From: a virus
Taxonomy: Duplodnaviria; Caudoviricetes
Strand: one strand, 5' to 3'
Length of the DNA stretch: 59,239 nucleotides
Virus record (IMG/VR): IMGVR_UViG_3300033153_005246
Location: 1 to 59,239 of that record
Made by a program: the position numbers and the translations under genes
Shown: piece by piece, positions 26,955-57,301 of the stretch
Numbering within the stretch: position 1 is the stretch's first letter
How the letters are laid out: the number at the start of each line of letters is the position of its first letter
Notes under the pieces: generated by a model
Seen by the model: the letters and a program-made list of their open reading frames with translations, nothing else
Told to the model about the DNA's origin: nothing
The model's database searches: none

Positions 26955-27527
26955 TCAAACATCCTTATAATAAATCTGGGGATATACCATTGCAATTTTA
27001 GCTTCTAATCCTTCTATACCAGAATCATTGTGTAATGTGTAATCTGGGATAATCTGATCCATTTCCTGCTCAGATGAATGTTGGTCTGTTGAAACTAATC
27101 CTTCTCTTTTTATCTTAAGAATATGTCCTCCCATTTCTTTAAGAATTTTAAATTCGTTAAGAAAACGAACATCTGATATTACTACATCTGCTCCTTTCGG
27201 TAGGCTTTCATACCAGTATTGGAATCTTTTGCACCACAGATTGTTTCCAATGATTTCATTAAAAGTTTTATTGAGAGTAGGAAAGAATTCTCTCATAGTT
27301 TCTGTTCCAAATACTTGCTGTATTTCTCTTCCACTCATACCCCATCGTTCATCTACAACTTCTTTTTGATCACCATTTATTTGGCTGTCTGACATCAAGA
27401 ATGTATCTGCTACGAAGTTCTTTATAGGAGAAGCAAATTTGTACTTCACAAATCCATGCTGTCTAATTAGATAGTCTGCGACTACATCTTTTCCTGCAAA
27501 TTTTTTACCTGTTATTCCTATGATCAT
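26955..27527 (-). CDS. Deoxynucleoside monophosphate kinase
   Basis: GITGKKFAGKD, FASPIK, REIQQVFGTE, SDVRFLNE and HSSE motifs. Confidence 0.9.
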   Translation of the reverse strand: MIIGITGKKFAGKDVVADYLIRQHGFVKYKFASPIKNFVADTFLMSDSQINGDQKEVVDERWGMSGREIQQVFGTETMREFFPTLNKTFNEIIGNNLWCKRFQYWYESLPKGADVVISDVRFLNEFKILKEMGGHILKIKREGLVSTDQHSSEQEMDQIIPDYTLHNDSGIEGLEAKIAMVYPQIYYKDV

Positions 27528-28276: not shown

Positions 28277-29381
28277 CTTTCTTACTCCATTTAATCATAT
28301 ACTCAGGAGATTTTGCTTTAAATCCAATATTTTGATCAGTCATTGATCTCCATACAAACCCTTCTCTTTTTGTATTACCAAATACTGATTTACCATTAGC
28401 ATCGGATAACACTTCTTCTATAGTATTTGGTAATAAAATATTCCAAGCATAAACAGGAACTGTTTCAAATCCATATTCATCACTAAATCCTATCATTTCA
28501 TAATAATCTAAAGTTCTCCCAGTGGCACTATCACTTACTTTAAATACAAATAATCGTGGAGTTTTAAACTTATATATATTTTTCTGAACACCTTCTTTAC
28601 AAATTTCCCCATGAATTGCGTATTTAATTCCGGTATCCTTATAAGCTTTTCTGAGTATTTTTTCTATTTCATACTGTTTACTTATCTGATCCCAATTACT
28701 ACCATCACCATCAAATCTCATAGCATTGTGAGAATAGAGTCTATACTCAGGATTCTTTTTGTTTCCATAAAGCATAAAACAAGAACTTTGTCCTTCCATT
28801 TTTTCTGCTTTATAGTATAGTTCTTCTGGCTTATTTTCCTTAAGCCAATTAAATACTTTTTGAACATTTGTCTCATTACTTTTCTGTATGGTATCAGGAT
28901 ATGTATTTTTAGATTTTTTCTTACCAAGAATTATATTTCTGAATACTTTATATTTTAACAAGAAGTTGGTGAATTTCCCATACTTCTTTTTGCTTGTATT
29001 AACAGATATTTCTTCGGGAGCATATTTTCTAGCACCTAATTTATCTGCTATAACTGTACCCACTTTTAATTTATGTCCATTTTGCAGTAAACTAAGAGGG
29101 AGACACAATCCTTGGCTAAAGACACCTGCCATTAACATATTTCTTATTCTAAAACCATCATAAAGAGAAGAGTAACAACGTGCTCTCAGAAACTCCAATT
29201 CTGGTCTAGGTTTTAATACTACATCATATTCTACATATATAGTGTAATCTCCAATAGTGTAATCTCCTTTAGTTACGATTACTTTCCATCCATGATCTAT
29301 TTCCGCTAATTCAATTCTGTCTTTTCCCAAAATAGGCTCCAAGCCAGTAATAACTGATATGTATACAAGATCTCTACCCAT
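28263..29381 (-). CDS. RNA ligase (Rnl2/DRB0094-like)
   Basis: N-terminal 'DRIELA..W.V' domain; EKMEG, HGE, REG and FKAKS ligase motifs. Confidence 0.8.
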   Translation of the reverse strand: MGRDLVYISVITGLEPILGKDRIELAEIDHGWKVIVTKGDYTIGDYTIYVEYDVVLKPRPELEFLRARCYSSLYDGFRIRNMLMAGVFSQGLCLPLSLLQNGHKLKVGTVIADKLGARKYAPEEISVNTSKKKYGKFTNFLLKYKVFRNIILGKKKSKNTYPDTIQKSNETNVQKVFNWLKENKPEELYYKAEKMEGQSSCFMLYGNKKNPEYRLYSHNAMRFDGDGSNWDQISKQYEIEKILRKAYKDTGIKYAIHGEICKEGVQKNIYKFKTPRLFVFKVSDSATGRTLDYYEMIGFSDEYGFETVPVYAWNILLPNTIEEVLSDANGKSVFGNTKREGFVWRSMTDQNIGFKAKSPEYMIKWSKKDETV

Positions 29382-29395
29382 AATTTCTCCTCTAT

Positions 29396-30148
29396 TTAAT
29401 ATTCATTTCTACATACACTAGCAGAAAACTCTTCGTGATATCTTTTCTCAGCTAATTTTCTAGTTTCTACTGCTTTTGAAAAAGACGAGAAATATCCCAA
29501 ATGATACTGCTTTTTATTTAACACAATAAATGGCAAGCATTTATTGTTTCTACAATGCCATGTTACTCCGGTAGCACCAGAAGTATTATTTGATTGTATT
29601 TTATGATTCCTATTATTCTCTTTGCTATTACAAATCCTTAAATTTTCTTTTTTGTTATTTAATGGACTGCCATCTATATGATCTATAACTAGATTTCCAG
29701 AATAATCTAAAATAAATCTATGTATTCTTGTAATTTTTTTATTGATTGGAGCACAAACATAATCCCTATCTGTGGTGTGCCAACAATAATCTTTTACTTT
29801 AGAGTAATCTTCTTTATCTATAACTATCTTTTTTTGAGAATCGTTACTACTTACTATAAGTATTGAATCTTCTAATGTTATAATTTTATTTTTCTTTTTG
29901 TTGGCTTCTTTTGTCTTTTTTATTGCAAGACACCCACAACTCTTTACATGTCCTCTACATATGGTATTTTTAGACAAGGTAACAATATTCCCACAAACAC
30001 ATTCACATGTATATTTCCAACTTGATGGTGGGATCATTTTTCCATTTATAAACTTAGATTGTTTGTCAAGATTAATAACAGTTAAACAATTAAATACCAT
30101 TCCCGAAGATAGATATTTAGGATACTTGCTACAAGATACCTCTCTCAT
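29396..30148 (-). CDS. HNH homing endonuclease with AP2 domain
   Basis: Paralogue of 27524-28276; IHRFI..IDHIDG..LNNKKENLR and NNTSG..GVTW. Confidence 0.85.
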   Translation of the reverse strand: MREVSCSKYPKYLSSGMVFNCLTVINLDKQSKFINGKMIPPSSWKYTCECVCGNIVTLSKNTICRGHVKSCGCLAIKKTKEANKKKNKIITLEDSILIVSSNDSQKKIVIDKEDYSKVKDYCWHTTDRDYVCAPINKKITRIHRFILDYSGNLVIDHIDGSPLNNKKENLRICNSKENNRNHKIQSNNTSGATGVTWHCRNNKCLPFIVLNKKQYHLGYFSSFSKAVETRKLAEKRYHEEFSASVCRNEY

Positions 30149-35026: not shown

Positions 35027-35995
35027 TCATACAACATCCTTTATAATATTATTTCTTAATATATTTACCAAATAATTATTAGCCCATTTAAAATTTGGCT
35101 TCTTTGGTAATACCGTTGTTTCTAAAGCTTTTTCACATAGTTTTGCATATGTTTCATGCATTTCCAATAATTCATCTAAATACACATCCCCATTTCTAAT
35201 TCTCATTACATTTATTTTGTGTTCTCCTGTAAATGGGAATTCTAGTTTACTTGTCTCCAATAGCATTAGACCTTCTGCCATAATTCTTATGCTATGCATA
35301 CCAAATTTTAAGTCGTAACCATGAGACAAGAAGGTATCTGTTTTTACCCTCCATCCATAGTTATCTCTTTCGCTAACTAATTTTTCATAATTAACATGAA
35401 GAGGAAGTCCTATATGGAATGATTCTGCATTACCATCTCTGTTCTTATAGAAATCTAAATTTTTATTCATCCAATCAGCATCATCCTGTGTCAGCCCATA
35501 TTTTCTATCAGTCAATTGATCTTTAGTAAATCTATTCTCTACTAATTTAATACCATTTGTTAAAGAAGCATATCTTTCTTTCTTGGTGATTAGTTTCTTT
35601 TTTTGAGAATATGCATAACTTGTAAAAGAAAAATATATTTTCTGAGAAATCAGTTTTTTATAGTTATCTATCAAAGGTTGAAATTCTGGTTCACAAATAA
35701 GTACATTCTCACCTGTGGCAAATAAAGTTTCTACAATATTTGGATTATTTCCCAAAAGCAAATGCATAAATTTAGGAAGAGAATATGATACATCATCAAT
35801 ATCATCTTTTGTATTTCTTCTATCTTCCGACGAAGATTTAGTAGAATTGTTAATCATATCCACTTTATTCAATCCCAGTAAATCCTCATCTGATGGCAGG
35901 AATACAGATAGAAAATCCTCATCTGATTCTGGAGTACTCAATCCGTACAACTGAGAGCCAACTCTTATTCTATATATTATTTTTCTTTCTTTCAT
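35027..35995 (-). CDS. Nucleotidyltransferase (Pol-beta superfamily, YcgL-like)
   Basis: VGSQLYGLSTPESDED, NNPNIVE and YDLKFGMHSIR; start taken at MKERK (ATGA overlap with cca). Confidence 0.8.
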   Translation of the reverse strand: MKERKIIYRIRVGSQLYGLSTPESDEDFLSVFLPSDEDLLGLNKVDMINNSTKSSSEDRRNTKDDIDDVSYSLPKFMHLLLGNNPNIVETLFATGENVLICEPEFQPLIDNYKKLISQKIYFSFTSYAYSQKKKLITKKERYASLTNGIKLVENRFTKDQLTDRKYGLTQDDADWMNKNLDFYKNRDGNAESFHIGLPLHVNYEKLVSERDNYGWRVKTDTFLSHGYDLKFGMHSIRIMAEGLMLLETSKLEFPFTGEHKINVMRIRNGDVYLDELLEMHETYAKLCEKALETTVLPKKPNFKWANNYLVNILRNNIIKDVV

Positions 35996-37326
35996 ATCAT
36001 CTCCTTTGCCACAGTAATAGCTTGTTCTCTGGTTGATACCACCCCATCTAATTGCAGGTTCATGATACAAGTTAAAATAGTGGTAAATCTAGGACTAGGC
36101 TCCAATCCTAATTCAATCAAATCTTTTCCACCAATAATGCATTTTGGTAATACAACTTCATTTTTCAATTCTTCTTTCATTTCATTAATTCTATTAAGCC
36201 AATCAAATTTATTTATTCCATCTTCAGGATCAGCAGGAGTAGATGCCATACTATCTGCATGTGAAACTGTGACTAGTTTATCAAAGTAGGTTTCTGCCAT
36301 AAGCCTTCTTAAAGTAGATCTTTTCATTTTGGAAGCATGTTTGATTCTCATATGATCTTTTACAATAGCTACTGCCGTATCTCTATGGGAAGAAGACGCT
36401 TTAAATCTATTCATAACTTCTTCTGCCATTTCTGCACCTATACTGGCATGTCCAAGATGTTTAATAATCCCCTCTACAATAGTACTGCATTTGGCTTTCC
36501 CAATATCATGCAATAGAGTCCCCCATAATACATCTAAATCATCTGTGTGTTTTCTGGCTTCATTTAAAGCAAGCATGGTGTGTTTCCACGTAGAACCTTC
36601 TGTGTGCCACTTAGGGGATTGGTCAACAAGAATTAGCTCATTTACTTCCTCTAAAATAATAGATAATATACCACAAGTCTTTAACAATCTAAACCCTATA
36701 CTTGGATTTCTAGCTAATAAAATCTTATCCAATTCCATTTTAACTCTTTCAAAAGAAATCTTTACAATACTAGAAGATAATTTAGTAACAGCTTGTCCTG
36801 CTGAAACTTCCAAATCAAAATCCAAAGAAACAGTAAATCTAATTGCTCTCATCATTCTAAGAGCATCTTCTTTAATCCTTTTCTCAGGATCACCGACAAA
36901 TCTAATAATGCTATTTTGAATATCGTCTACCCCACCAAAGAAATCAAACAACTTATTTTCAATAGGATCAAAAAACATAGCATTCATTGTGAAATCTCTT
37001 CTACTGGCATCTTCCTTGAGAGAAGATGTATATTTCACACTATCAGGTCTTCTTCCATCAGAAGTATCTGAATCAGTTCGTAATGTTGCTGCTTCAAACT
37101 GAAGATTATACACAATAACTATAATTACACCAAATGCTTTTCCCACAGGTAATGTATGTCCAAACAATTCTTCGACCTCATCTGGAGAAGCTGATGTGGC
37201 AACATCATAGTCTTTAGGAGTCCTTCCCATAACCTGATCTCTAACACATCCTCCTGCAAATACTGCAATATGTCCCGCATCTTGTAATTTTTTCACAATA
37301 TTTGTGGCTATTTCTTTTTCGTTCAT
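35992..37326 (-). CDS. cca: CCA-adding tRNA nucleotidyltransferase with HD domain
   Basis: AGGCVRD, KDYDVAT, RRDFTMNA, EDALRMMRAIRF, SFER and LLHDIGK motifs. Confidence 0.9.
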   Translation of the reverse strand: MNEKEIATNIVKKLQDAGHIAVFAGGCVRDQVMGRTPKDYDVATSASPDEVEELFGHTLPVGKAFGVIIVIVYNLQFEAATLRTDSDTSDGRRPDSVKYTSSLKEDASRRDFTMNAMFFDPIENKLFDFFGGVDDIQNSIIRFVGDPEKRIKEDALRMMRAIRFTVSLDFDLEVSAGQAVTKLSSSIVKISFERVKMELDKILLARNPSIGFRLLKTCGILSIILEEVNELILVDQSPKWHTEGSTWKHTMLALNEARKHTDDLDVLWGTLLHDIGKAKCSTIVEGIIKHLGHASIGAEMAEEVMNRFKASSSHRDTAVAIVKDHMRIKHASKMKRSTLRRLMAETYFDKLVTVSHADSMASTPADPEDGINKFDWLNRINEMKEELKNEVVLPKCIIGGKDLIELGLEPSPRFTTILTCIMNLQLDGVVSTREQAITVAKEMI

Positions 37327-37909: not shown

Positions 37910-37938
37910 ACTATAGTATGTTTTTTAATTTTTGTCAA
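37910..37938 (-). promoter_or_regulatory. sigma70-type promoter
   Basis: TTGACA-17-TATAGT upstream of the HD-cca-NTase genes. Confidence 0.7.
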
Positions 37939-40688
37939 GCACTTTTTTCATAACCGTATCTTTCCAATAATTCTTCTTCTTCCACATGATCATACCAATT
38001 CCCATTATCATAATATTCTACATCAGCTTTCATCGTATGTTTTACCCATCTATATTTCTTCATGAGATATTCCGTCATGTAATAAATAACAGTATCTCGC
38101 AAACCTTTTCCTATCCATTCAGAAAGATCTTCTGGTGTGTCAAAATACATAGCGTCATGGATTTGAGCACAGATTTTTGTTTTTAAATCATTTTCATCAA
38201 TATACTTCTGTATTTTAGTTTGTGCCTGAAGAACGACATGAAAGGCAGGACCTTGTATTACATACGAATTAGTCTGATTTCTGCTCATAACAGTTGTGGA
38301 ATAAAATCCTGTTTTTAATTTGGTTCTTGTATTTTGTACATAATTTTTCCAATTATCTTTTCTCCATTGTCCAAACTCTCCATAATTATCATTCCAGTAC
38401 CAGTCACAAACTTCCTTTATATGTTCTGTGAATTCTTTTTCATTCGTAATTCCCATCTCTTTAAAATATTGTTTATGAAAATCTTTCATATGTTTATTGT
38501 ATACTGTAGGACCAATGCTCAAGTATATATCACCAAACTGTAAGCTAAAGCTCAGGCCATTCTTAGCAATATATCTCAATTCTTTAAACATTCCTTTTTC
38601 ATTATCATGTTTTTCATCAAATATTCCCATTTCTTTTTTAATATTAAGCATATCTTTTGCTACTTGCTCTAAATCACCCTTAAATAGTTTTTCTGCTAAA
38701 CCAAGATGCATGTCCAACCCTTCTTCCAATTGTTTTAGCATTGTCTTATCTTTATGAATAGAGCACCCAATTCCTACTTCTAATGAGCTGGCGTCCACTC
38801 CCACGATCCTGTTTCCATCCTTTACTTTTAAAGTAGATCTGACCATTTCTGTTGCAAATAAATCATGCTGGCTTTGATTCTGCCAACATGGATTCTGACT
38901 GGAACTTCTATAACTTTTAGGGATATTCAAAGACCATTGTGGATAAATGTGTCCATCTACTGTTTCTTTTTTAATCCCTTTTAAATCTTGAGTCAATTTA
39001 ATTAATTTTGCTATCTCCAAATACATTTTAACAAATTCAGATAGATGAGCAACATCCTTCAATTCTTTTGCTTCAGTCGAGTATTGTTTTTTATCTGTCA
39101 TTTTAGTTTTAGGTAATTTTAAAATGCTAAATAGAAAATCTGCAAGTTGTTTCCCAGATTTATAATTAAACTCTGTATCTCTAACCTCATGCCATTTTTT
39201 AACTTCATCACAGTTTTTAATATTGTATTGAAGTTTAGTTATTTTTTCATCAAGAAGCATTTCGTTCTGGATTAAACGATTTTCATCTATGTTAAAACCA
39301 TTTTCCATCATTCTACAAAAAGACAACATTCCATTATGAAATAAATCATATCCTTTTCTTAAATGTGGATCATCAATAATCTGTGGTCTTTGCCATTCAT
39401 ATAACTTATAAGTGAAGTGTGAATCGAGTGCGCAATAAAGGCACATTTCTTTAAGATCCATTTTATCCATAGTATTAAAACCATTAGTTCCATATAATTC
39501 TTTTTCTTCTTTAGTTGACTTAATAAACTGATCAGCAGCAGAGTCATATCCAAGTATGCCCAGTCTCATATAAGTCTGTATTTTCAAACCAGTGATGTTC
39601 GATCTATTATCAAGTATATGTGTAGCCAACATGCTGTCCCATACAAAATTCTCCGTTCTGTATCCAAACATAACGTGTCCTGCCTGATATTCATAAGCCA
39701 TATTATGACTTATTTTCCCTACTCTGGTAGAACGAAGAAGTCTTTTGAGATTATTCATAAATGGTTTGTTATCATAAAATATAGGAAAACCATAAGAAAC
39801 AATCCCATTACTGAAAGAAACACAATATATTGTATGTCCTTTTTTATGTAGTTTAATACCGGAAGTTTCATAATCAAAGGAGACAAGTGTTTCTTTTTGC
39901 ATACATTTAAGAATATGTGTAGCCTCTTCAACATCCATAATAGCACAAGCTTCTGCTTCATAAGTATCTTTTTGAAATTCTTTTGAAGAGTTTATTCCAT
40001 TAAGATATTTCATAAAGAACTTTTCTTTTAATACAAAATCATCATTATTATATAGTTGTTTATTCTGCCATAATGGAGTATTCTTATCAGGTGTTCTCCA
40101 TTTCCCCCACTTTTTTAATTTCTCCATTCTTATTTTAAGTGGAAGCAGTACAAAATCAGTATCATATATGGGAAGTATTAACTTACCCAATTCCTGATCT
40201 GGTATATGAGCACCATAAAACTTTTCTGTGGGTTTAAGACTCATTCTTCCTCTACATCTATCTCCTATAAGAATTTCTAAAGGAAGTTCTCCTAATGTAA
40301 CTATTTTTTTAGGATCAAGTTGTTTTATTACTCTATGCAATTTATGTTTACAACTGGACATCATTTGGGTTGTCGGAGCTTTTGGATCATCTGAAGCACA
40401 ACGTATAGATGGGACATACCAACAATCTCTTTCCAAATCTATATTGATTTTTCGTAAAGCATGTCTTAAATATTTTCCTTGAAGATCAGACAATAATTTT
40501 CCACTCTTATCATCCCTCCTACTAACCATACCACCAACAATCAAGATTTTTCTGTTTCCTTCCCCAATAAATCCCATCTTGGGACTTTGGCAATGTCTAT
40601 ATTGTTGACAAGATTCACAGGATGAAATTTTTTTAATATTTTTCTTCTTCTTAATTGCCTTCTTATCAAGTTGAAAGAATCCTTCCAT
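37935..40688 (-). CDS. polA: Family A DNA polymerase with N-terminal family-4 UDG-like domain and 3'-5' exonuclease
   Basis: CxxC..C Fe-S-type UDG N-terminus; exonuclease FDYETSG, HN and YCALDS; polymerase RSSS.NP, DASSLE, R...K and QIHD. Confidence 0.9.
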   Translation of the reverse strand: MEGFFQLDKKAIKKKKNIKKISSCESCQQYRHCQSPKMGFIGEGNRKILIVGGMVSRRDDKSGKLLSDLQGKYLRHALRKINIDLERDCWYVPSIRCASDDPKAPTTQMMSSCKHKLHRVIKQLDPKKIVTLGELPLEILIGDRCRGRMSLKPTEKFYGAHIPDQELGKLILPIYDTDFVLLPLKIRMEKLKKWGKWRTPDKNTPLWQNKQLYNNDDFVLKEKFFMKYLNGINSSKEFQKDTYEAEACAIMDVEEATHILKCMQKETLVSFDYETSGIKLHKKGHTIYCVSFSNGIVSYGFPIFYDNKPFMNNLKRLLRSTRVGKISHNMAYEYQAGHVMFGYRTENFVWDSMLATHILDNRSNITGLKIQTYMRLGILGYDSAADQFIKSTKEEKELYGTNGFNTMDKMDLKEMCLYCALDSHFTYKLYEWQRPQIIDDPHLRKGYDLFHNGMLSFCRMMENGFNIDENRLIQNEMLLDEKITKLQYNIKNCDEVKKWHEVRDTEFNYKSGKQLADFLFSILKLPKTKMTDKKQYSTEAKELKDVAHLSEFVKMYLEIAKLIKLTQDLKGIKKETVDGHIYPQWSLNIPKSYRSSSQNPCWQNQSQHDLFATEMVRSTLKVKDGNRIVGVDASSLEVGIGCSIHKDKTMLKQLEEGLDMHLGLAEKLFKGDLEQVAKDMLNIKKEMGIFDEKHDNEKGMFKELRYIAKNGLSFSLQFGDIYLSIGPTVYNKHMKDFHKQYFKEMGITNEKEFTEHIKEVCDWYWNDNYGEFGQWRKDNWKNYVQNTRTKLKTGFYSTTVMSRNQTNSYVIQGPAFHVVLQAQTKIQKYIDENDLKTKICAQIHDAMYFDTPEDLSEWIGKGLRDTVIYYMTEYLMKKYRWVKHTMKADVEYYDNGNWYDHVEEEELLERYGYEKSA

Positions 40689-41257: not shown

Positions 41258-42244
41258 TTAATCTATTTTTATTCCAGAAATTTCATAAAAAATCTCAGCA
41301 TCGAAATTCGGTAAGTTTTTAACAGTTTCTTTGTCTTTAACGCTGGCATTGTCCCATGCTCTTTCAAATGCTGTTTTATAATCTAGTGTTCTTAAAAATC
41401 CTCCACAAGTTTCAATCTCATTTTTGTACTCTTCTTTCTCTTCTTCTGTTGCAGTATCATGACTGACCCATTGTGTAAGATCAAAGTATAAGAATGAGGG
41501 AAAAGAAATACTTCCCATTTCAAGTTCTGTATCTTTATTAAACAGCCTTGCGATAGGGTTTTCAGTGTTAAAGAATCCAGAGTTCCAATTTCCAGAGTTC
41601 CAATTTCCAGAGTTCCAATTTCCAGAGTTCCAATTTCCAGAGTTTCTGTTTCCAGAGTTTCTGTATCCAGAGTTGCTGTATCCAGAGTTGCTGTTTCCAG
41701 AGTTGCTGTCTCCAGAGTTGCTGTATCCAGAGTTCCTGTATCCAGAGTTGCTGTCTCCAGAGTTGCTGTTTCCAGAGTTGCTGTTTCCAGAGTTGCTGTT
41801 TCCAGAGTTGCTGTTTCCAGAGTTGCTGTTTCCAGAGTTGCTGTATCCAGAGTTGCTGTATCCAGAGTTGCTGTTTCCAGAGTTGCTGTCTCCAGAGTTG
41901 CTGTTTCCAGAGTTTCTGTCTCCAGAGTTTCTGTTTCCAGAGTTTCCAGAGCCTGTATTTATTAGACCCAACAATTCTGCCCACTCTACTTCTCTTACAA
42001 TTTTTATTTTATTTGTAGCCTGTTTATCCTTATCTGTACCAACGATATCTCCAATTAATTCTACTTCTGCAACTTTATTATCAGTATCAAAACTATAATA
42101 ATTGAAACAATCCACTGCCTTTTTACACGCATGAAACCCAACTTCACACAAAACAGGTTTTTCTTTCATTTCATAAGTTTCTCCTACTTCATATTGAAAT
42201 CCTCTACATGCCCAATCATTGTTAAAAACTTTATATGCTTTCAT
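41258..42244 (-). CDS. Pentapeptide-repeat (xxNSG) phage protein
   Basis: N-terminal 'CRGFQYEVG...GFHAC' domain, central repeat, C-terminal 'LPNFDAEIFYEISGI'. Confidence 0.85.
   Translation of the reverse strand: MKAYKVFNNDWACRGFQYEVGETYEMKEKPVLCEVGFHACKKAVDCFNYYSFDTDNKVAEVELIGDIVGTDKDKQATNKIKIVREVEWAELLGLINTGSGNSGNRNSGDRNSGNSNSGDSNSGNSNSGYSNSGYSNSGNSNSGNSNSGNSNSGNSNSGNSNSGDSNSGYRNSGYSNSGDSNSGNSNSGYSNSGYRNSGNRNSGNWNSGNWNSGNWNSGNWNSGFFNTENPIARLFNKDTELEMGSISFPSFLYFDLTQWVSHDTATEEEKEEYKNEIETCGGFLRTLDYKTAFERAWDNASVKDKETVKNLPNFDAEIFYEISGIKID
41576..41944. repeat. 15-bp coding tandem repeat
   Basis: 25 invariant TCCAGAGTT cores at exact 15-bp spacing with 6 variable bases between them. Confidence 0.95.
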
Positions 42245-46591: not shown

Positions 46592-47119
46592 TTATATTAA
46601 TCCTTCCATTGCTCCAGTTAGAATTTCCACATAAGGCATATAATCTGTCCCATATAAAATTAACAAAGTATATTCCAGTGTACTCTGTGGAATCTTCTTT
46701 CCATTCAAGAAATTACCAATCCCAAAATTATAACATGCAAAGGTATCAAACCAATTCCCATTCAATCTATCATTCAAATGTCTCAGGTACGCCGCACCCA
46801 TTTTGATATTTGTTTCTTTATCATACAAATCAATCGGAATCCCATTATTGAATTTATCAGCAAAGTATTCCGTGTTTACTGTATTGATCTGGGAGTACCC
46901 TATGCTCTGTGTTCCATTGTTTTCATATCTAATGGCATCCCCATTATACTGGCTTTCCAGTTTGTGAAGTCGTGATAGATATTTAATTGGAATATTGTAC
47001 TCCCTACTAACATCAATAATAATCTGCCTGTCTTCCCTTGGATACTGTTTCAGGAATAAGTCTTCTGCAAATGTTGTGTACCCTGCTAAAATAAATAATA
47101 AAATAAAAATAATTCTCAT
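46592..47119 (-). CDS. Secreted lytic transglycosylase (SLT domain)
   Basis: Signal peptide; LES, IGYSQIN, NIKMGAAYL and ACYNFG motifs. Confidence 0.85.
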   Translation of the reverse strand: MRIIFILLFILAGYTTFAEDLFLKQYPREDRQIIIDVSREYNIPIKYLSRLHKLESQYNGDAIRYENNGTQSIGYSQINTVNTEYFADKFNNGIPIDLYDKETNIKMGAAYLRHLNDRLNGNWFDTFACYNFGIGNFLNGKKIPQSTLEYTLLILYGTDYMPYVEILTGAMEGLI

Positions 47120-47152: not shown

Positions 47153-47181
47153 ATTGTAACACAGTTTGTTTTATTTGTCAA
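47153..47181 (-). promoter_or_regulatory. sigma70-type promoter
   Basis: TTGACA-17-TACAAT with TG extension. Confidence 0.7.
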
Positions 47182-48610
47182 GAGGTTTAAATAAATTTGT
47201 AAAAACAGCTTCTAACATGGGAACCACTATCCCTCTTCCAGCACGCTCATATAGTTTTGTATTAGATAGTCCTCCAATTTCTTTGGTTTTTTCAAAATCT
47301 TCATCATGATATCCCATCAATCTCCAACATTCTAAAGGAGTTAATCTTCTTACTTTAAAATTCACATACAACATACTATCTGATTTTACTGTAATTAAAG
47401 AATTAGATACATTGTCTTTTCTTGTTTCTATCTGTTTTTTAATAACCCCATTCTCATTTCGTCTTCCTCTAGAGGCTACTCCAACCACAACATTATCTTT
47501 TTGTACTGTAGATAAAGTGTTGGTAACATCTGGATTTTGATTTATCTCTAATATTTGCACAGTAGGTAGTCCTTTTTCTCTGCTTTTAGGATTATCTGGA
47601 TTTCTTCCAACTATCCTTCCTGCTTGCATAATTTTTGGCTGTCTATTTCCCCCATTCATACTATTTAAAGTTGGAGATAATCCTTCTTCCGAATATATTC
47701 TTGTATTTGCATGTTTTTTATCGTCTATATTTCCTACTTGAATTAGTGTTCTTTTTTTCTTTTCTATAGATGTTCCTTTATAGTAATGAGTGTCCAAATA
47801 ACAATCAATTTCTTGATTGGGAAGATTGTCAGTAATGTGTTTATATTTATCTGGATTGATAAAATATTTCTCACCTACTTCTCCCTCAAGAATTTCTTTT
47901 AAAGAGACATCCACACTATTATTTGTAGGCATATGGAAATTATCATTATCATGTTCTTTCAAAATTGAAATCATAATAACTCTTTCCCGATTCTGAGGTA
48001 CACCATAATGTTTCCCATTCAACACTGACCAATAAGAATTATACTCGTAGGAATCTAACAGAGAAATCCAATCTTTAAAATCTTGTATATGGTTCTTCCC
48101 TACCAGATTCTTTACATTCTCCATCATAAGATATGTGGGAAGTTTATGTTTAATAATCCTATCACATTCCCATAATAAAGAAGACTGTGTACCACTCCCT
48201 CGTTTTAAACCCTCTTGTCTTCCGGCTATTGACACACTTTTACAAGGATACGAATATGTAAACATATCAAAATCTGGTAATTTAGTTTCATCAATCTTTC
48301 TTATATCTCCCCAATTTTTGTTTCTCTTATGAGCAACATACATTTTTGTAACATCTTTCAATCCTCTGGGAATTTCATTTTTGTATGTAGAAAAATTATA
48401 ACCAATATTACATCTCTCAAACTCTTCTACCATTTCTTCTTTTGATGAGATCTCTACTTCCATCTCCTGATCATTATGAATAGCATCATATGCTATTAGA
48501 GCATATCTATCTACTTCTGACATTCCAACTAATTCAAAATCTACACCAATATTTTTTAAAGCCATCTCAGGACTTCCTACTCCAGTAAATGTGCTAAATA
48601 ATTTAATCAC
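47171..48610 (-). CDS. dcm: C5-cytosine DNA methyltransferase family protein; predicted carboxymethyltransferase
   Basis: FTGVG (I), YPC (IV), ENV (VI), PQNRER (VIII), RRLTPLECWRLMG (IX); motif X reads AGRGIVV instead of AGNSIVV. Confidence 0.85.
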   Translation of the reverse strand: MIKLFSTFTGVGSPEMALKNIGVDFELVGMSEVDRYALIAYDAIHNDQEMEVEISSKEEMVEEFERCNIGYNFSTYKNEIPRGLKDVTKMYVAHKRNKNWGDIRKIDETKLPDFDMFTYSYPCKSVSIAGRQEGLKRGSGTQSSLLWECDRIIKHKLPTYLMMENVKNLVGKNHIQDFKDWISLLDSYEYNSYWSVLNGKHYGVPQNRERVIMISILKEHDNDNFHMPTNNSVDVSLKEILEGEVGEKYFINPDKYKHITDNLPNQEIDCYLDTHYYKGTSIEKKKRTLIQVGNIDDKKHANTRIYSEEGLSPTLNSMNGGNRQPKIMQAGRIVGRNPDNPKSREKGLPTVQILEINQNPDVTNTLSTVQKDNVVVGVASRGRRNENGVIKKQIETRKDNVSNSLITVKSDSMLYVNFKVRRLTPLECWRLMGYHDEDFEKTKEIGGLSNTKLYERAGRGIVVPMLEAVFTNLFKPLDK

Positions 48611-49311
48611 TCTTTAACTCCTATCCATCCAGCAAAATTTAAATATCTCCAAAAACAATCGACGTAATTAAAACCAGCCGAATAAAGCATATCTTCATTC
48701 CACTTCGCAGTCATTGGTACTAACACCCCTTCTAAAGACAATCGTTTCCTAGCAATATCTTCACTGGAATATCCATTATCTTCTTTCATCTGATAATATT
48801 TCTTTAAAAGAACATCATCAATTAAGGCTGAGTTTCCAAGAATTTTTTCAACTAAAATTATTACACCGCCCTTCTCCGTAGATTCGTAAATTTTTCTTAA
48901 TAATCTTTGTCGATATTCTATTGGAATAAATTGTAAAGTCAAAACACACAATGTAACTGAAGATCTACATTCAGGATAGTCGAATCTCAAGTCTACATTT
49001 TTAAAATCAACTATACTCCAAAGATCAGGGTAATTATCTTCAATTTCTTTAAGCATGTTATCAGAAGTATCTATGCCTATTAAGTTATTTGTTTTAGTAA
49101 ATTTGGTTGCTAAACGAGATATAGCATCTCCTCTTGAGCATCCCAGATCTACTATAGATGTTCTTGGTTGTACATATTCTATAGCTATATTGTGAACTAA
49201 CTCCCTCATAGCCCTGTATTGAGGGATAGATCGTTCCAGCATATTATCAAAGACTTTTGATACATCCTCATCGAACTCCCACTTCCCTTCTGGTCTGTAA
49301 TCATCTTTCAT
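48607..49311 (-). CDS. cmoA: CmoA-like carboxy-S-adenosylmethionine synthase
   Basis: FDEDVSKVFDNMLERSIPQY, DLGCSRG, TLQFI, EK, GYS..DIARKRLSLEGVL and LNFAG match CmoA blocks. Confidence 0.8.
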   Translation of the reverse strand: MKDDYRPEGKWEFDEDVSKVFDNMLERSIPQYRAMRELVHNIAIEYVQPRTSIVDLGCSRGDAISRLATKFTKTNNLIGIDTSDNMLKEIEDNYPDLWSIVDFKNVDLRFDYPECRSSVTLCVLTLQFIPIEYRQRLLRKIYESTEKGGVIILVEKILGNSALIDDVLLKKYYQMKEDNGYSSEDIARKRLSLEGVLVPMTAKWNEDMLYSAGFNYVDCFWRYLNFAGWIGVKE

Positions 49312-49321: not shown

Positions 49322-50029
49322 TTATTCTCTTATAAACGGATATGGGTCTATAGGAATCCATTGTTCTCCAGAATACACTTCAATTTGAAAATGAAGATGT
49401 ATACCATCACTAAATCCCGTAGAACCCATCCACATAATGCCCGTATCTGATGTAACAAGTTCACCAGTAATTCCTGCATAATAGATCTTCTCTCCATGCG
49501 CATACATTGATCTTACTCTATCAGAATGTCTTACATAAATCACTTTTCCAAAAACTTCATCCATACCGTGATGTACAACTTCCCCGTCTCCAATAGGTGT
49601 AATCATCCAATCATCTGTGTCTGAAACAATATCGATTCCGGTGTGATCATCTCTCAATCGTCCATGAAAACCTATGCTTTCTCCAAAATGAGCTGTTACA
49701 GAAAAAGGAACTCTAAGTGGAGAGCCACGTGGAATTTCTTTAATTAACTCATGTATCTCATTAGGTGACAAGAGATCCTTTAGAGGATCAAGGACAGCTC
49801 GAATTCGCACGTTCTCCTCTAACTGGGTATAGTCTTCCTTTAGCTCACCATAACCCCGTAGCGACTGCTGTAATGCTATAGCATATTCATCCACCTCTGC
49901 CAACCTATCTTGTGAAGCACTCAATTTTTTATGCAGCAAAACTATCTCACACGCTTGAATAACAAATAATCCCAACAGAATAACTGTCAGGATCATTGCC
50001 AATTTTAAAATAGGTATTTTCAAATCCAA
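49322..50029 (-). CDS. Membrane-anchored M23 metallopeptidase
   Basis: N-terminal TM, coiled coil, HTGID, YAH and HLHF motifs. Confidence 0.85.
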   Translation of the reverse strand: MDLKIPILKLAMILTVILLGLFVIQACEIVLLHKKLSASQDRLAEVDEYAIALQQSLRGYGELKEDYTQLEENVRIRAVLDPLKDLLSPNEIHELIKEIPRGSPLRVPFSVTAHFGESIGFHGRLRDDHTGIDIVSDTDDWMITPIGDGEVVHHGMDEVFGKVIYVRHSDRVRSMYAHGEKIYYAGITGELVTSDTGIMWMGSTGFSDGIHLHFQIEVYSGEQWIPIDPYPFIRE

Positions 50030-50715
50030 TTCCCCTTTCCATCGGGGAAAACTTCTATTAATGACTCTTCAATACCATATGTGTATACCCAAGTCTTTTC
50101 CCATTGACCCCATTCCTTACTTTCTCCAGTATGAATGTTTTTAAATTTTCTTTTATATTGTCCTAATTTAGTATATTTTTGAACATCTATAAAATCTATT
50201 TGAGGTTTTCCTTTATACCCCTGTTCCCACACAAACCAGCCAGTGCAGAGGGCACCCACATGAAATAATCCATCATCTCTCAATGGTGTTTGGTAGTCTA
50301 CATATCTTGTAAACACATAAATATTCTTTAATGTATCCCAAATTCCAGATTCAAATCTTGACTGTGTGCCAAAGTAATTAGTTCTGCCAAGCATTATTGT
50401 TTTATTGGCAGATAATTCTTTTCCTTTACTTACAAATTTATCCCACAAAGAAAATGGGGGATTTGTCATAATATCACCATTGTGTTTTTCTGTTGTCTTA
50501 AGAAAATTAGTTCCGGTGAGAATATCTGTTGCTCTATACTCTATATTGTGTTCTTTAAATACATCAGTAATTGCACCATACCCACTTGCAGGTTCCCATA
50601 CATTATTTACTTTTTCTACTTTTAAAAGTTCTGTTGTTAGGGATTTGGGTGTGTGGTATAGATCACCGCCCGGTCTTTCTGATGCTGATTTTCTATTTGC
50701 GTATGCTTTTCCCAT
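50020..50715 (-). CDS. N6-adenine DNA methyltransferase
   Basis: DLYHTP, WEPASGYGAI and TNPPF motifs. Confidence 0.85.
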   Translation of the reverse strand: MGKAYANRKSASERPGGDLYHTPKSLTTELLKVEKVNNVWEPASGYGAITDVFKEHNIEYRATDILTGTNFLKTTEKHNGDIMTNPPFSLWDKFVSKGKELSANKTIMLGRTNYFGTQSRFESGIWDTLKNIYVFTRYVDYQTPLRDDGLFHVGALCTGWFVWEQGYKGKPQIDFIDVQKYTKLGQYKRKFKNIHTGESKEWGQWEKTWVYTYGIEESLIEVFPDGKGNWI

Positions 50716-54311: not shown

Positions 54312-55760
54312 TCACAAATCTTCCAAATCTGCAATGTCTTCCTCGTCATAATTATTATCACAAATTACGGTAGAATAGTTTGGTATATCTTTTTTCCACC
54401 TTGAATCAATTATTGCCCTTCCAAATAGGAAATTTTGCAGTGTTACGACCTCACCAAAATATTCTTCATTTCTACCACTCGCAGATATTCTCATTATACC
54501 TCTTTCTTTTTCCTCATTAGTTTGATTAAGAGAAAGCAGCAATGAAGCGTGATGGAAAAGAGAATAAGATTCTGCGATTGTCTCCTCTGAACCGCCCGTC
54601 TTAAGTCCAGATTTTGCGAACTGAATTGGAGCTAATACCATTAATTTCATCTCTTCACACATCTCTCTTTTTATTCTGGTAGCCGTATCGTCATATTGAT
54701 GTCGTTTTTCTTTTCCTTTAGCACCTGAAATAAGAGAAAGCTGATCAATTACAATTACATCTAAGTCAATCCCATCATTTTGTGATGCATTAATTATAGT
54801 AGTCTTCATAGCATCAATACTTGATCCTCCAGTAATGGTATCAAAAAAAAGAAATTGTCCCGGCTTGCATTGTCTATCAAATAATCTCCAAACTCTTTCA
54901 GCTCTTTTGGGTGTTAATTGCTTAATCTTGTGTTTTTCGTACTGTATATTACCACGTTTGTCAAACTCAGGTGTATATTTTTCTTTAGTGATTTTTTTAA
55001 ATGTTTGACCACTTACAAATTGGGCTAATCGTTTCCCAAACAAGTCCCACCCCATTTCTAAACTAAAATAAGCAACATTCAAGCCTGCCTGCATTGCATA
55101 CATAGCTAACTGCATACTGTAAAAACTTTTTCCACGTTTTGAATTCCCACCTATCATGAAGAAATCTGCTGGTGCTATTTCGGGAACTAACTCACCTAAA
55201 GCTCCGGGTATTTTAAATAAGGATGACTTTTGAGTAAAAAGATCATTAAGAGCATTCCTGTCTTTAAATACATTAATACCCTTAGAACCATTTTTCTCTT
55301 TCCTCACATAACGCTTCTGTTCCTTCTCAGCCTCTGCAATTTTCCCCAGAGAAACCAACCCTTTTACTTTATCAGCATTTTCTGTTAGGCTCCTGCCCTT
55401 AATGTAATCTTCTACTTGATGGAAAATATAGTCTCCATCAAATTTGGTTTTATCCTCAATATATTTGGCATTAATATTTTCTAAAGTAGATTCAATAAGC
55501 TCAACATCTTCTTCACTTTGGATATTCTTACTCTCTGCTTTAAAGATATCCATGATAGATTCATTGGGTGCAACACTGTATTTACGGTGGTAATCTAACG
55601 TCCATCCTATGATAATTCTTAAATATTTGGATTTCAGGAGATTTAGGTCTTCTCCTATCAAAAGTTGGAAATCCCTACAGAATTTGGTGCTGATGATTGT
55701 TCCTATGGCTGAATTCATTTCGTCATCTAAACTTATTTTACTTCTTCGGTACTTACCCAT
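54312..55760 (-). CDS. dnaB: DnaB-like replicative helicase
   Basis: GNSKRGKS Walker A, FSLEM and IVIDQ motifs; start uncertain (55760-55778). Confidence 0.8.
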   Translation of the reverse strand: MGKYRRSKISLDDEMNSAIGTIISTKFCRDFQLLIGEDLNLLKSKYLRIIIGWTLDYHRKYSVAPNESIMDIFKAESKNIQSEEDVELIESTLENINAKYIEDKTKFDGDYIFHQVEDYIKGRSLTENADKVKGLVSLGKIAEAEKEQKRYVRKEKNGSKGINVFKDRNALNDLFTQKSSLFKIPGALGELVPEIAPADFFMIGGNSKRGKSFYSMQLAMYAMQAGLNVAYFSLEMGWDLFGKRLAQFVSGQTFKKITKEKYTPEFDKRGNIQYEKHKIKQLTPKRAERVWRLFDRQCKPGQFLFFDTITGGSSIDAMKTTIINASQNDGIDLDVIVIDQLSLISGAKGKEKRHQYDDTATRIKREMCEEMKLMVLAPIQFAKSGLKTGGSEETIAESYSLFHHASLLLSLNQTNEEKERGIMRISASGRNEEYFGEVVTLQNFLFGRAIIDSRWKKDIPNYSTVICDNNYDEEDIADLEDL

Positions 55761-56532
55761 CCATTCCCTCATTCTCAATCCTATATTTTGCTACATCTAC
55801 CCATTTCCAATTAAAGAATTCCGACTTTTCTTTTTCACAATATCCATTATCAATTCCTATGAAGTTTCTATTTAAGTTTTTACAAGCTACTCCTGTAGAT
55901 CCTGATCCCATCGTACAATCCAAAACTGTATCTCTTTCATTGGTAAAAGTCTTAACAAAGAATTCCATCAATGCTACAGGCTTTTGAGTTGGATGATAAT
56001 TACTGGTTAAAATATCCCTTTGTATTTTCAGTACCTGAGTGGGGTATCTCCATCCAGTATCTTCATATTCCTTAACAGCTTTCTCATTACTGTCTGTTAA
56101 TACACCCATCTTTCCGTTCTTGACTTTATTACTTCGTTTAGCACCAGTATACTTAATCATTTGTGGATTATACGTTGGTTGTTTATTATAAAAGATGCAA
56201 CATTCTTCTACCGTTTTTCCAGCTCTTCTTTTAACTTGAGCAATATTTGTTAGTCGCTCTTTCTCCCAATAATAGCAGTATTTAAATATTTTATAATTAG
56301 AGGAAATAAGGGCAGAAGTAAATGGTTGCTGTGCTGTTAAAACAATGGCTCCATTGTGTTTATTTAATTTGTTGAATCGTTCCCACATTGGTTCAAAAGG
56401 GATAATCTTGTCCCATGCTAAATTTGTAACAGAATATGGTAGATCTGTGATAATTGCATCTACCTTAATTCCTTCTTCAATTAATTCATCCATGATTTCC
56501 AGTGTATTTCCGTGTATTAATCTGTTATTCAT
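55753..56532 (-). CDS. Beta-class N4/N6 DNA methyltransferase
   Basis: TDLPY, HPTQKP and LDCTMGSGSTG motifs. Confidence 0.9.
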   Translation of the reverse strand: MNNRLIHGNTLEIMDELIEEGIKVDAIITDLPYSVTNLAWDKIIPFEPMWERFNKLNKHNGAIVLTAQQPFTSALISSNYKIFKYCYYWEKERLTNIAQVKRRAGKTVEECCIFYNKQPTYNPQMIKYTGAKRSNKVKNGKMGVLTDSNEKAVKEYEDTGWRYPTQVLKIQRDILTSNYHPTQKPVALMEFFVKTFTNERDTVLDCTMGSGSTGVACKNLNRNFIGIDNGYCEKEKSEFFNWKWVDVAKYRIENEGMDG

Positions 56533-57301
56533 TTACACCTCTGCTATTGTCAAAAGAATATTCACCACGATACTTTTCTTCTCCTTCTTTACGAGCTTTT
56601 ATAGCATCTTCTTTGTTTGTAAATCGCCCTAAAAATCTTTGTTTATGTCCTATAGTTATACCAACTTCCCATTTATTATAAGTAGATGACCAAAATACAC
56701 CAGCTATTCCTGATGAATTATTTGTGTTTTTTTTCCTATTCATACTATTTTGTAAATGAGTGCAAATTCTTATATTATTTCTCCTATTATTCAGTCCATT
56801 GCCATCTTTATGGTCTACTACATACTCATCTATAGGAGAAAGTAGTAGTCTATGCATTAGGATATTCTTATGCTCATAATTATAAGTACTTCTAAGGGAT
56901 GCACAAGCATAAAAAGTATTACCATATTCTGTCTTAAGTACTCTCCAACAATAATTTTTAATTATTGGATAATCATTTTTATTAATAATGGTATATGTAT
57001 TTTCTTTATTAAAGAAAAATACCTTAATATAATCACCACATTCTTCTATTCTATTAGTTTTTTTACTTCTTTTAGATACAGTTTCCTTTCTGATACACCC
57101 ACAGGATTTTGGATTATTGCTAATTAATCCATGTTTGCTTGCTAAAGTAGTATTTCCACAATCACACTTACATATATATTTCCACACACTAGGAAGTATT
57201 CTTTTGCCATTTTTAATTTTACTACTCTCATCAACTTCTATTACAGTAAGTCTATTAAATTTCATTCCTTTCTTTAAATATTTAGGGTATTTCTTTTTCA
57301 T
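56525..57301 (-). CDS. HNH homing endonuclease with AP2 domain
   Basis: Third paralogue: KYPKYL...CKCDCG...SCGC, MHRLL..VDHKDGNGLNNRRNNIR, NNSSG..GVFW. Confidence 0.85.
   Translation of the reverse strand: MKKKYPKYLKKGMKFNRLTVIEVDESSKIKNGKRILPSVWKYICKCDCGNTTLASKHGLISNNPKSCGCIRKETVSKRSKKTNRIEECGDYIKVFFFNKENTYTIINKNDYPIIKNYCWRVLKTEYGNTFYACASLRSTYNYEHKNILMHRLLLSPIDEYVVDHKDGNGLNNRRNNIRICTHLQNSMNRKKNTNNSSGIAGVFWSSTYNKWEVGITIGHKQRFLGRFTNKEDAIKARKEGEEKYRGEYSFDNSRGVNE

Follow-up and report, generated by a model that had tools for sequence, protein, structure and literature searches.

A phage cmoA gene overlapping an arginine-type C5 methyltransferase gene, a predicted DNA 5-carboxymethylcytosine module

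Gene organization of the locus

The window is the complete 59,239-nt stretch of IMG/VR record IMGVR_UViG_3300033153_005246 (Caudoviricetes). It comes from an uncultured large phage, and the record is estimated to represent about 35% of a genome. A cmoA homologue and a C5 methyltransferase gene are situated in a phage replication module (Table 1). The cmoA stop codon TGA (48609–48607) and the methyltransferase start codon GTG (48610–48608) have the sequence GTGA in common, which gives the 4-bp overlap recorded in the preliminary description. The junction reads ...AAAGAGTGATTAAA... and has an AGGAG 7 nt upstream of the methyltransferase GTG. The cmoA ATG is also preceded by an AGGAG, at 5 nt. 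The arrangement of the junction suggests translational coupling. Neighbours of the pair are genes for an M23 peptidase and an SLT transglycosylase. The window also has tRNA-related genes, i.e., a CCA-adding enzyme, an RNA ligase and RlaP. Its only tRNA gene is tRNA-Cys(GCA), which is not known to be a cmo5U-type tRNA. A blastn comparison of the pair with cultured phages gives a single 51-nt match.

Table 1. Features of the cmoA–methyltransferase locus (window coordinates)
Feature	Position	Strand	Basis or remark
cmoA, carboxy-SAM synthase homologue, 234 aa	48607..49311	(-)	TIGR00740, 4GEK and phrog_4752 matches
Putative cmoX-type C5 cytosine DNA (carboxy)methyltransferase, 479 aa, GTG start	47171..48610	(-)	PF00145, M.MpeI match
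Junction: AGGAG 48622-48618, GTGA 48610-48607	48607..48622	(-)	sequence read
CmoA Arg190 codon, counterpart of E. coli CmoA Arg199	48742..48744	(-)	alignment to 4GEK
Motif IV 'YPCK': catalytic Cys123 then Lys124	48239..48250	(-)	ordinary relatives have Gln or Thr
Motif X 'LYERAGRGIVVP', residues 453-464	47219..47254	(-)	Arg459 codon 47234-47236
Variable target-recognition region, residues 264-415	47366..47821	(-)	low-confidence model

Potential partner genes were searched for in the window. There is no match to CmoB (PF08003) in the 59 kb, in agreement with the preliminary description; the control search matched in 7 of 14 reference genomes. No CmoY-type gene is found in the window, either as a PF00733 match or as a phmmer match to the CmoY-type proteins of S-B05, PaBG or vB-SscS-F1. 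ParB is likewise not present in the window, and Pfam scans of 48 ORFs in the window show no ligase, amidotransferase or glycosyltransferase. Since the record covers only about a third of the genome, the absence of a ligase is a result for the window and not for the whole genome.

The CmoA homologue

The 234 aa protein matches the CmoA model TIGR00740 over model positions 13–239 of 239 (2.2e-50). The score of 171.6 bits is under the curated equivalog cut-off of 193.3 bits. CmoA proteins of four other phages score lower still, from S-B05 (115.6) and PaBG (130.5) to a jumbo phage of Erwinia (139.3) and one phage of Staphylococcus (155.1). This indicates that the cut-off is tuned to bacterial orthologues. 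Further matches are to the structures 4GEK (E. coli CmoA, 2.3e-32) and 1IM8 (9.9e-31), and to phrog_4752 (2.2e-77). The protein has the SAM motif VDLGCSRGD and the TLQF stretch.

The segment KRLSLEGV begins at residue 189, and its Arg190 aligns with the Arg of KRSMLENV in 4GEK. The preliminary description had the Arg of this KR..LE.V motif as retained, and the alignment bears this out. Arg190 is opposite residue 213 of the 4GEK chain, which is Arg199 if the 261-residue chain has 14 extra N-terminal residues. This reading is based on a native length of 247 residues for E. coli CmoA. In its fold, SAM motifs and Arg199 counterpart the protein is like the CmoA of the bacterial CmoA/CmoB pathway, which forms cmo5U in tRNA. 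It differs in its setting, i.e., the window has no CmoB gene, the partner is an enzyme of DNA methyltransferase fold, and the pair is part of a phage replication module. In E. coli CmoA, no side chain other than that of Arg-199 is described as contacting the carboxylate of carboxy-SAM (Cx-SAM) (PMC4482062).

The C5 methyltransferase

The 479 aa protein matches PF00145 (1.8e-60) and TIGR00675 dcm (7.9e-60). Phmmer matches are to M.MpeI (4dkj, 3.2e-36), HhaI (1e-26) and SpCmoX (8yf3, 9.4e-5); the similarity to SpCmoX is marginal and is limited to residues 100–219 of the transferase. An AF2 model has a pLDDT of 80.7. With this model the top Foldseek match is again 4dkj (E 3e-30, TMt 0.78), and 8yf3 is at rank 29. 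Values of pLDDT below 50 are found at residues 264–286, 333–358, 362–385 and 390–415. Shorter members of the family cover only 68–74% of the query.

The catalytic motifs are intact: FTGVG (8), PC (122–123), ENV (164) and QNRER (206). Motif IV reads SYPC, and the published SPPC motif is absent. The motif X string quoted in the preliminary description, LYERAGRGIVVP, is found at residues 453–464 of the protein. Its Arg459 is opposite Asn374 of M.MpeI (4dkj) and Asn304 of M.HhaI, with positions counted from the printed alignments, and the proposed Asn-to-Arg change in motif X is thus upheld. In a MAFFT alignment YERAGRG falls over TERVGRM of the S-B05 orthologue.

Comparison with known systems

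A CmoA–CmoX(–CmoY) system of Synechococcus phage S-B43 was demonstrated by experiment in December 2025 (Yang et al., Nat Commun 2025, PMC12783734). According to that report, SpCmoA makes Cx-SAM and SpCmoX takes only Cx-SAM, with SAM not accepted by the wild-type enzyme. Arg350 of SpCmoX, which corresponds to HhaI Asn304, contacts the carboxymethyl carboxylate of Cx-SAM in a 1.9 A crystal structure, and the R350N mutant is described as dead. DNA modified by this system resists HhaI (PMC12783734). The S-B05 CmoX is of the same length as SpCmoX and has identical S95-P96-P97-C98 and R350 numbering. The cassettes are cmoA-cmoY-cmoX in S-B05, and cmoX, cmoA and an asparagine-synthase gene in PaBG.

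The pair in the window resembles the S-B43 system in several respects. A phage CmoA homologue adjoins an enzyme of C5 methyltransferase fold, CmoB is absent, and the predicted product is 5-carboxymethylcytosine (5cxmC). The Arg at the HhaI Asn304 position is within an ER.GR motif (YERAGRG in the window, TERVGRM in S-B05, FERLGRS in PaBG). A CmoY ligase is also part of the cassette in some relatives of the window's transferase. The differences are that CmoY and ParB are not in the window, and that the transferase has only marginal similarity to SpCmoX (8YF3). In motif IV it has SYPC-K in place of SPPC-S. It has a long motif IX–X linker, like its Asn-type neighbours, and a larger variable region (479 vs 372 aa).

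The nearest solved relative by sequence and by fold is the CpG methyltransferase M.MpeI (4DKJ). The precedent cited in the preliminary description, that M.MpeI N374K is an engineered carboxymethyltransferase that uses Cx-SAM via a cationic residue, is confirmed by the published account (PMC13288465). The same source has 5cxmC as resistant to enzymatic deamination. In contrast to that engineered enzyme, the one in the window is natural, has Arg instead of Lys, and is paired with its own predicted Cx-SAM synthase. Beyond this Arg, three more changes relative to M.MpeI are fixed in its clade (PCK for PCQ, and YER for YKQ). Staphylococcus phages (SPbeta-like and vB-SscS-F1) also have a cmoA next to a C5 methyltransferase gene, and vB-SscS-F1 has a CmoY-like gene as well. 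However, their enzymes have GSPCQ, with Gly and not Arg at motif X (VVGGVI), and belong to a separate clade.

Relatives of the transferase and linkage to cmoA

The transferase is a member of a large uncultured clade that is marked by the signature PCK ... YERAGRGI and differs from the SPPC-type CmoX described in the literature. Among the best 120 database matches, Glu-Arg...Arg (E455/R456/R459) is present in 119, PCK in 118 and SPPC in 4. Scanning viral contigs with the transferase as a single protein gave no match; relatives were found by an alignment-based scan of viral contigs. Eight stretches matched a degenerate DNA pattern that codes for YERAGRGI. Five of these (L087–L091) have no methyltransferase and were discarded as matches due to chance, and another (L094) is the same contig as L007.

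Co-occurrence of Arg-type methyltransferases with cmoA, a survey proposed in the preliminary description, is pronounced in 165 related loci. A cmoA is next door in 15 of the 16 loci that have the PC[K/R] and Arg signature, and in none of the 149 others. The one signature locus that has no cmoA is a contig of 1,786 bp. In the 15 linked loci cmoA is on the same strand and within about 2.1 kb of the transferase, and it comes first in 11 and second in 4. The residue after the catalytic Cys in the 149 non-signature loci is Q, T, I or C (one not recovered). Among the 165 loci, an Arg at the position of Arg459 is confined to the 15 loci of one clade, 14 of which also have an adjoining cmoA, and it is not a chance occurrence. 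The 16 signature loci form one clade in the tree, so the linkage represents the history of one lineage and not 16 independent events. Two relatives have a CmoY-type ligase in the cassette, with the gene orders cmoA-cmoY-cmoX (L092) and cmoY-cmoX-cmoA (L096). In a third (L105), a transferase of the window's type and an SPPC-type CmoX are side by side behind one cmoA.

Proposed function and alternatives

The pair is most probably a phage CmoA–CmoX DNA modification module, predicted from sequence to make 5cxmC. By homology, CmoA would convert SAM and host prephenate to Cx-SAM, whose level would rise in the infected cell. The transferase would then flip out a target cytosine, Cys123 would attack C6, and the carboxymethyl group of Cx-SAM would be transferred to C5. 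Arg459, at the usual place of the motif X Asn, would hold the cofactor carboxylate, perhaps together with Lys124. This would yield 5cxmC in phage DNA and SAH, and the mark may shield the DNA from host restriction. The base could be left as 5cxmC or be amidated by a ligase whose gene is in the ~65% of the genome that the record does not cover. The natural two-gene system of the preliminary description is thus supported as a prediction by the named residues, the S-B43 precedent and the tight linkage of Arg and cmoA. Since SPPC is absent and the similarity to SpCmoX is marginal, the transfer of function depends on gene linkage and a small number of residues.

It is rather unlikely, although to be reckoned with, that 5cxmC is an intermediate only, and that an ATP-dependent amide ligase of the CmoY type, with its gene beyond the 59-kb record, turns it into an amide, e.g., a glycine amide. 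The base in the virion would then be other than 5cxmC. In the S-B43 report the virion DNA held only the glycine amide and no 5cxmC (PMC12783734). Relatives with CmoY within the cassette and the estimated share of the genome in the record (35%) are also consistent with this. However, cmoY adjoins cmoX in the known cassettes, whereas the neighbours here are the peptidase and transglycosylase genes, and both CmoY searches of the window were negative. CmoY is also absent from the available flanks of 14 of the 16 signature loci. The published count of 2,251 ligases against 5,615 CmoX (PMC12783734) implies that many systems are without a ligase.

An improbable explanation is that the transferase is an ordinary SAM-dependent 5-methylcytosine enzyme, with CmoA feeding a host CmoB (tRNA cmo5U) or draining SAM to weaken host defences that depend on SAM. 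The nearest solved and cultured-phage relatives of the transferase are ordinary methyltransferases, depletion of SAM by CmoA is raised as a possibility in the S-B43 report (PMC12783734), and the window does have the three tRNA-related genes. Engineered M.CviPI with Lys or Arg at the equivalent position (Y205K and Y205R) is reported to have kept its SAM activity, and engineered M.MpeI N374K to favour hemi-carboxymethylated sites (PMC13288465). The behaviour of these engineered enzymes means that exclusive use of Cx-SAM is not assured. Against an ordinary enzyme, wild-type SpCmoX refuses SAM (PMC12783734). The clade has Arg459, Glu455, Arg456 and Lys124 as fixed residues, which the 149 relatives that have no cmoA lack, and the two genes are coupled by the GTGA overlap. 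The window has no CmoB, and tRNA-Cys(GCA) is the sole tRNA gene. It is very improbable that a SAM derivative other than Cx-SAM is the product of the CmoA-like enzyme, or that the substrate of the transferase is RNA or something else and not DNA. The sub-threshold CmoA score and the C5 methyltransferase fold of the tRNA enzyme Dnmt2 would fit this explanation. The best matches, however, are DNA enzymes solved with DNA (4dkj, 3e-30), and Dnmt2 is a much weaker match. The Arg199 counterpart, the end-to-end alignment to CmoA, and the SPPC-type CmoX and CmoY in the cassettes of relatives also argue against it.

Origin of the arginine-type enzymes

Free trees place the window's clade apart from the SPPC type. 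In an AU test with the motif columns included, joining the two groups has p = 0.705 and the joined tree is 13.2 lnL better. When 14 motif columns are masked, joining has p = 0.206 and the joined tree is 23.65 lnL worse. Joining is rejected in neither case, and the Arg may have been gained once or, independently of SpCmoX, a second time. The tree used for this comparison is a quick tree. A scan for more diverse SPPC-type sequences gave mostly near-copies from cyanophages, which were left out of it.

It is conceivable, though somewhat doubtful, that natural DNA carboxymethyltransferases evolved twice and that the PCK...YERAGRGI clade is the second, independent lineage, which arose inside the M.MpeI/SPbeta-type methyltransferases. 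Such a lineage would have undergone the same changes as SpCmoX, from Lys-Gln...Asn to Glu-Arg...Arg, and the Lys after the catalytic Cys would be an added second contact to the carboxylate. Its target specificity would differ from that of SpCmoX, for which the target is GC. The target may be CpG, since M.MpeI is the best match and these phages are depleted in CpG. CpG specificity is not to be assumed, however, because the variable region does not align with that of M.MpeI. If the clade is a second lineage, evolution would have arrived, in the same scaffold, at the solution that was engineered as M.MpeI N374K. The published census used the SPPC motif (S95 P96 P97 C98) as a filter (PMC12783734), and would then have largely missed this clade.

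Significance

The pair is most likely a further example of the known phage DNA carboxymethylation system, differing in the branch of its methyltransferase. The preliminary description rightly cautioned that related phage systems may have been reported; the S-B43 system has been published, so a claim of novelty falls, and the known picture of the pathway is unchanged by the PCK...YERAGRGI pair. It adds one more uncultured large phage that is predicted to carry 5cxmC, which bears on evasion of restriction and CRISPR and on artefacts in virome sequencing. The data also suggest that motif-based counts of natural CmoX are too low. The transferase occurs naturally and is related to M.MpeI, from which the carboxymethyltransferase of DM-Seq was engineered. 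The clade has four fixed changes (PCQ to PCK, and YKQ..N to YER..R) compared with one in the engineered enzyme, and these four residues are direct candidates for raising the Cx-SAM selectivity of engineered enzymes.

Organization of the cmoA-cmoX gene pair

The CmoA homologue and the cmoX-type C5 DNA methyltransferase (the transferase) are encoded by adjacent ORFs whose coordinates match those of the preliminary description. The junction sequence is AAAGAGTGATT, and the 4-bp overlap claimed earlier is GTGA, which is common to the TGA stop of cmoA and the GTG start of the transferase gene. AGGAG is found 7 nt upstream of this GTG and 5 nt upstream of the cmoA ATG. The pair is part of a co-directional, closely packed run (phrog_799 DNA methyltransferase, M23 peptidase, cmoA, cmoX, SLT transglycosylase), where the M23 gene and the upstream methyltransferase gene overlap by 10 bp. 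This run is embedded in a replication and nucleotide-metabolism module with SNF2 helicase, DnaB, NAD ligase, PIF1 helicase, PolA, RNR, gp32-like and RecA-like genes. The M23 and SLT cell-wall enzymes sit amid a replication module. The 231-aa phrog_799 ORF, located two genes upstream of cmoA, has no match in Pfam or NCBIfam but probably encodes another DNA methyltransferase. As an N6/N4 DNA methylase gene is also present, the phage has three DNA-modifying genes in approximately 9.4 kb.

Features of the window discussed in the text
Feature	Position	Strand	Remarks
cmoX-type C5 methyltransferase	47171..48610	-	ORF, 479 aa, GTG start
cmoA homologue	48607..49311	-	ORF, 234 aa
SLT lytic transglycosylase	46592-47119	-	directly flanks cmoA-cmoX pair
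M23 peptidase	49322-50029	-	directly flanks cmoA-cmoX pair
phrog_799 "DNA methyltransferase"	50020-50715	-	231-aa ORF; 8.4e-36; NPPF motif
N6/N4 DNA methylase	55753-56532	-	PF01555 at 1.7e-26; phrog_67
Family A DNA polymerase	37935-40688	-	917 aa; PF03167 at residues 42-155
RNA repair-type genes and tRNA-Cys(GCA)	35027-37326, 28263-29381, 18412-18484	all -	
Three ORFs, paralogous-looking	56525-57301, 29396-30148, 27524-28276	all -	~250 aa; C-terminal HNH_3 each
328-aa protein	41258-42244	-	DUF7666 then pentapeptide repeats (PF01469)

Properties of the two proteins

The transferase matches PF00145 at 1.8e-60 and has intact FTGVG (motif I), Pro-Cys (122-123), ENV (164) and QNRER (206); motif names and roles are those generally used for C5 methyltransferases. 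Motif IV reads S-Y-P-C-K and not SPPC. The motif X string quoted in the preliminary description, LYERAGRGIVVP, is present at residues 453-464. Counted along HMMER alignments, Arg459 is opposite Asn374 of M.MpeI (4dkj) and Asn304 of M.HhaI, as had been proposed. Sequence matches are to M.MpeI (3e-36), HhaI (1e-26) and the Synechococcus phage S-B43 enzyme SpCmoX, 8YF3 (9.4e-5, residues 100-219 only). An AlphaFold2 model built from a 61-sequence alignment has a mean pLDDT of 80.7 and a pTM of 0.79, with the variable region (residues 264-415) poorly modelled. A Foldseek search of the PDB with this model places M.MpeI first (E 3e-30, TMt 0.78), HhaI next and 8YF3 at rank 29 (E 3.7e-13, TMt 0.66), the same order as in the sequence searches.

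The CmoA homologue matches TIGR00740, the carboxy-SAM (Cx-SAM) synthase CmoA family, from end to end (2.2e-50), as well as E. coli CmoA 4GEK (2.3e-32), H. influenzae YecO 1IM8 (9.9e-31) and the phage family phrog_4752 (2.2e-77). Its TIGR00740 score of 171.6 bits is below the NCBIfam cut-off of 193.3, and the CmoA proteins of four other CmoA-carrying phages score lower still, with 115.6 for S-B05, 130.5 for PaBG, 139.3 for an Erwinia jumbo phage and 155.1 for a Staphylococcus phage. The best cultured-phage match is to Erwinia jumbo phages (47.5% identity). The quoted string KRLSLEGV starts at residue 189, and Arg190, the Arg described as retained, aligns with Arg199 of E. coli CmoA in the 4GEK alignment; this numbering includes an offset for a tag that we take to be 14 residues from a native length of 247. 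Arg199 is described as the sole residue whose side chain touches the Cx-SAM carboxylate (PMC4482062).

Comparison with published systems

In phage S-B43, SpCmoA makes Cx-SAM, and SpCmoX forms 5-carboxymethylcytosine (5cxmC) in GC motifs with Cx-SAM as sole accepted cofactor (Yang et al., Nat Commun 2025, PMC12783734). Arg-350 of SpCmoX replaces HhaI Asn-304 and contacts the Cx-SAM carboxymethyl group, R350N is inactive, and the modified DNA resists HhaI (PMC12783734). SpCmoY joins glycine onto 5cxmC, and S-B43 virion DNA carries the glycine amide (PMC12783734). The M.MpeI precedent cited in the preliminary description is also borne out: PMC13288465 reports that N374K uses Cx-SAM to form 5cxmC and that M.CviPI is likewise converted when its structurally equivalent residue is changed to Lys or Arg. 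A literature search on CmoX, 5cxmC, Cx-SAM and carboxymethyltransferase returned no further natural system in print.

Phage S-B05 has a cassette orthologous to that of S-B43 (cmoA-cmoY-cmoX), with a CmoX equal in length and in S95-P96-P97-C98 and R350 numbering. PaBG carries cmoX, cmoA and an asparagine-synthase gene. Its SPPC-type enzyme has a Lys after the Cys, like the window transferase, and the string ER.GR is common to both Arg types.

Conservation and linkage to cmoA

The 120 best matches in a 5.8-billion-protein collection, with the window's own protein included and residues read by pairwise alignment, form a tight family. Glu455, Arg456 and Arg459 are present in 119 of the 120, and a Lys follows the catalytic Cys in 118 (Asn and Arg in one each). 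The remaining match, P0031, is the sole clade member with Asn at 459, although its PCK/YER background is complete in other respects (YERAGNGI); it could represent a natural reversion or an error in sequencing. SPPC is found in only four. The published census comprises 5,615 candidate CmoX with both SPPC and R350, whose contigs also encode 4,257 CmoA, 2,251 ligases and 1,660 ParBc proteins (PMC12783734); its SPPC filter, applied literally, would leave most of the window-type family uncounted.

Co-occurrence was surveyed in 165 loci encoding transferase relatives (80 from viral contigs, 2 more from a motif scan, 3 from GTDB genomes and 80 from metagenomes; a few contigs are present in two collections). 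Five motif-scan hits judged to be due to chance were left out, as was one contig already in the set. Loci were sorted according to which residues align with positions 124 and 459, and available flanks were searched for CmoA (phmmer E <= 1e-5, ORFs >= 50 aa). Lys or Arg is at position 124 in 16 loci, 15 of which have Arg at 459; the sixteenth loses motif X at the contig end. A cmoA gene is on the same strand within ~2.1 kb in 15 of the 16, placed first in 11 and after the transferase gene in 4. The locus without cmoA, L104, is on a contig of 1,786 bp that extends <400 bp to each side. Among the other 149 loci (Asn at motif X in 140, unresolved in 9), the same search found cmoA in none. Because the 16 loci form one clade, this linkage represents one lineage's long-kept trait and not 16 independent events. 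Only 3 matches occur in 185,579 species genomes, which suggests that the family is mainly viral.

Phylogeny of the Arg-type enzymes

A quick IQ-TREE search was made with 58 rows, one partial row being left out: the window transferase, 12 loci of its clade, 41 manually chosen Asn-type rows (drawn from the 140 and two second copies), the SPPC-type enzymes of S-B05 and PaBG, and two Staphylococcus phage enzymes. The window clade is a single group (SH-aLRT 99) nested deep among YSFPCQDIS/YKQAGN-type methyltransferases, and its sister is a pair of Asn-type phage enzymes (98). The SPPC pair is elsewhere, on a very long branch. Alignment features other than the trait itself divide in the same way: a long motif IX-X linker (ECWRLMG..DEDF......SN..LY) is common to the window clade and its Asn-type neighbours, whereas the SPPC type has a short linker and PDDF, as in GGFPCQPFS-type enzymes. 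AU tests do not reject a single Arg-type clade, either with all columns (p = 0.705, joined tree 13.2 lnL better) or with 14 motif columns masked (p = 0.206, joined tree 23.65 lnL worse). An independent origin of the window clade and the SPPC-type enzymes is therefore at most plausible.

Variant cassettes in relatives

In locus L105 (2992-6897), a single cmoA precedes three C5 methyltransferase genes, each of a different type: GGFPCT with QRCSGIP, SPPC with WERIGRAVPP, and the window type with YERAGRGIVVP. The window and SPPC types thus coexist in one locus. L106 (1601-4462) has one cmoA followed by GGFPCT- and window-type genes, and cmoY is inside the cassette in two clade relatives, L092 and L096. 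The cmoA-adjacent enzymes of Staphylococcus phages SPbeta-like (L005:5705-6703) and vB-SscS-F1 (L259:7491-8498) differ in having GSPCQ and a Gly for the Arg at motif X (VVGGVI), which may be another way of fitting Cx-SAM. In vB-SscS-F1 a CmoY-like gene is between the two genes. An apparent intein (IVHN|C, ITHN|C) interrupts the transferase genes of L169 (4974-7184), P0048, L073 and L146 directly ahead of the catalytic Cys; P0048 has PF13403 and PF14890 beside PF00145.

Other features of the phage genome

The phage is distant from cultured phages, and its PolA shares 23% identity with the Bacillus phage SP-10 enzyme. In the polymerase, an N-terminal uracil-DNA glycosylase superfamily domain is fused ahead of the 3'-5' exonuclease. 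The gene for the DUF7666 protein separates those of the polymerase and the PIF1-like helicase. The RNA repair-type set consists of an HD-domain enzyme of the CCA-adding/poly(A) polymerase type, an RlaP nucleotidyltransferase and an RNA ligase; tRNA-Cys(GCA) is the single tRNA gene. The three HNH_3 ORFs are likely homing endonucleases dispersed in the replication module. CpG is strongly depleted in the window (observed/expected 0.39; GpC 0.93). The CpG ratio is 0.33-0.86 in 12 clade loci (L007, L092, L093, L096, L099, L102-L107, L169), and its median is 0.75 across 78 low-GC loci that encode Asn-type enzymes. The depletion could reflect host lineage or modification target.

Proposed function

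Homology, conserved residues and linkage together point to a two-step pathway. CmoA would make Cx-SAM, Arg459 of the transferase would hold its carboxylate, and Cys123 would drive C5 carboxymethylation, with 5cxmC in phage DNA as the predicted product and anti-restriction mark. We consider this pathway quite likely. The window, which is the full IMG/VR record, has no match to three CmoY-type proteins and no Asn-synthase-like gene, ParB_N or, as previously noted, CmoB. The record is estimated to be 35% complete, so a ligase may be encoded elsewhere in the genome. The earlier reading of a two-gene DNA carboxymethylation system agrees with these data and with the S-B43 system, whose publication (PMC12783734) means that it was right and already in print. 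The kind of system is known; the modest added value of this pair is as a representative of a large M.MpeI-like CmoX clade outside the published SPPC signature.
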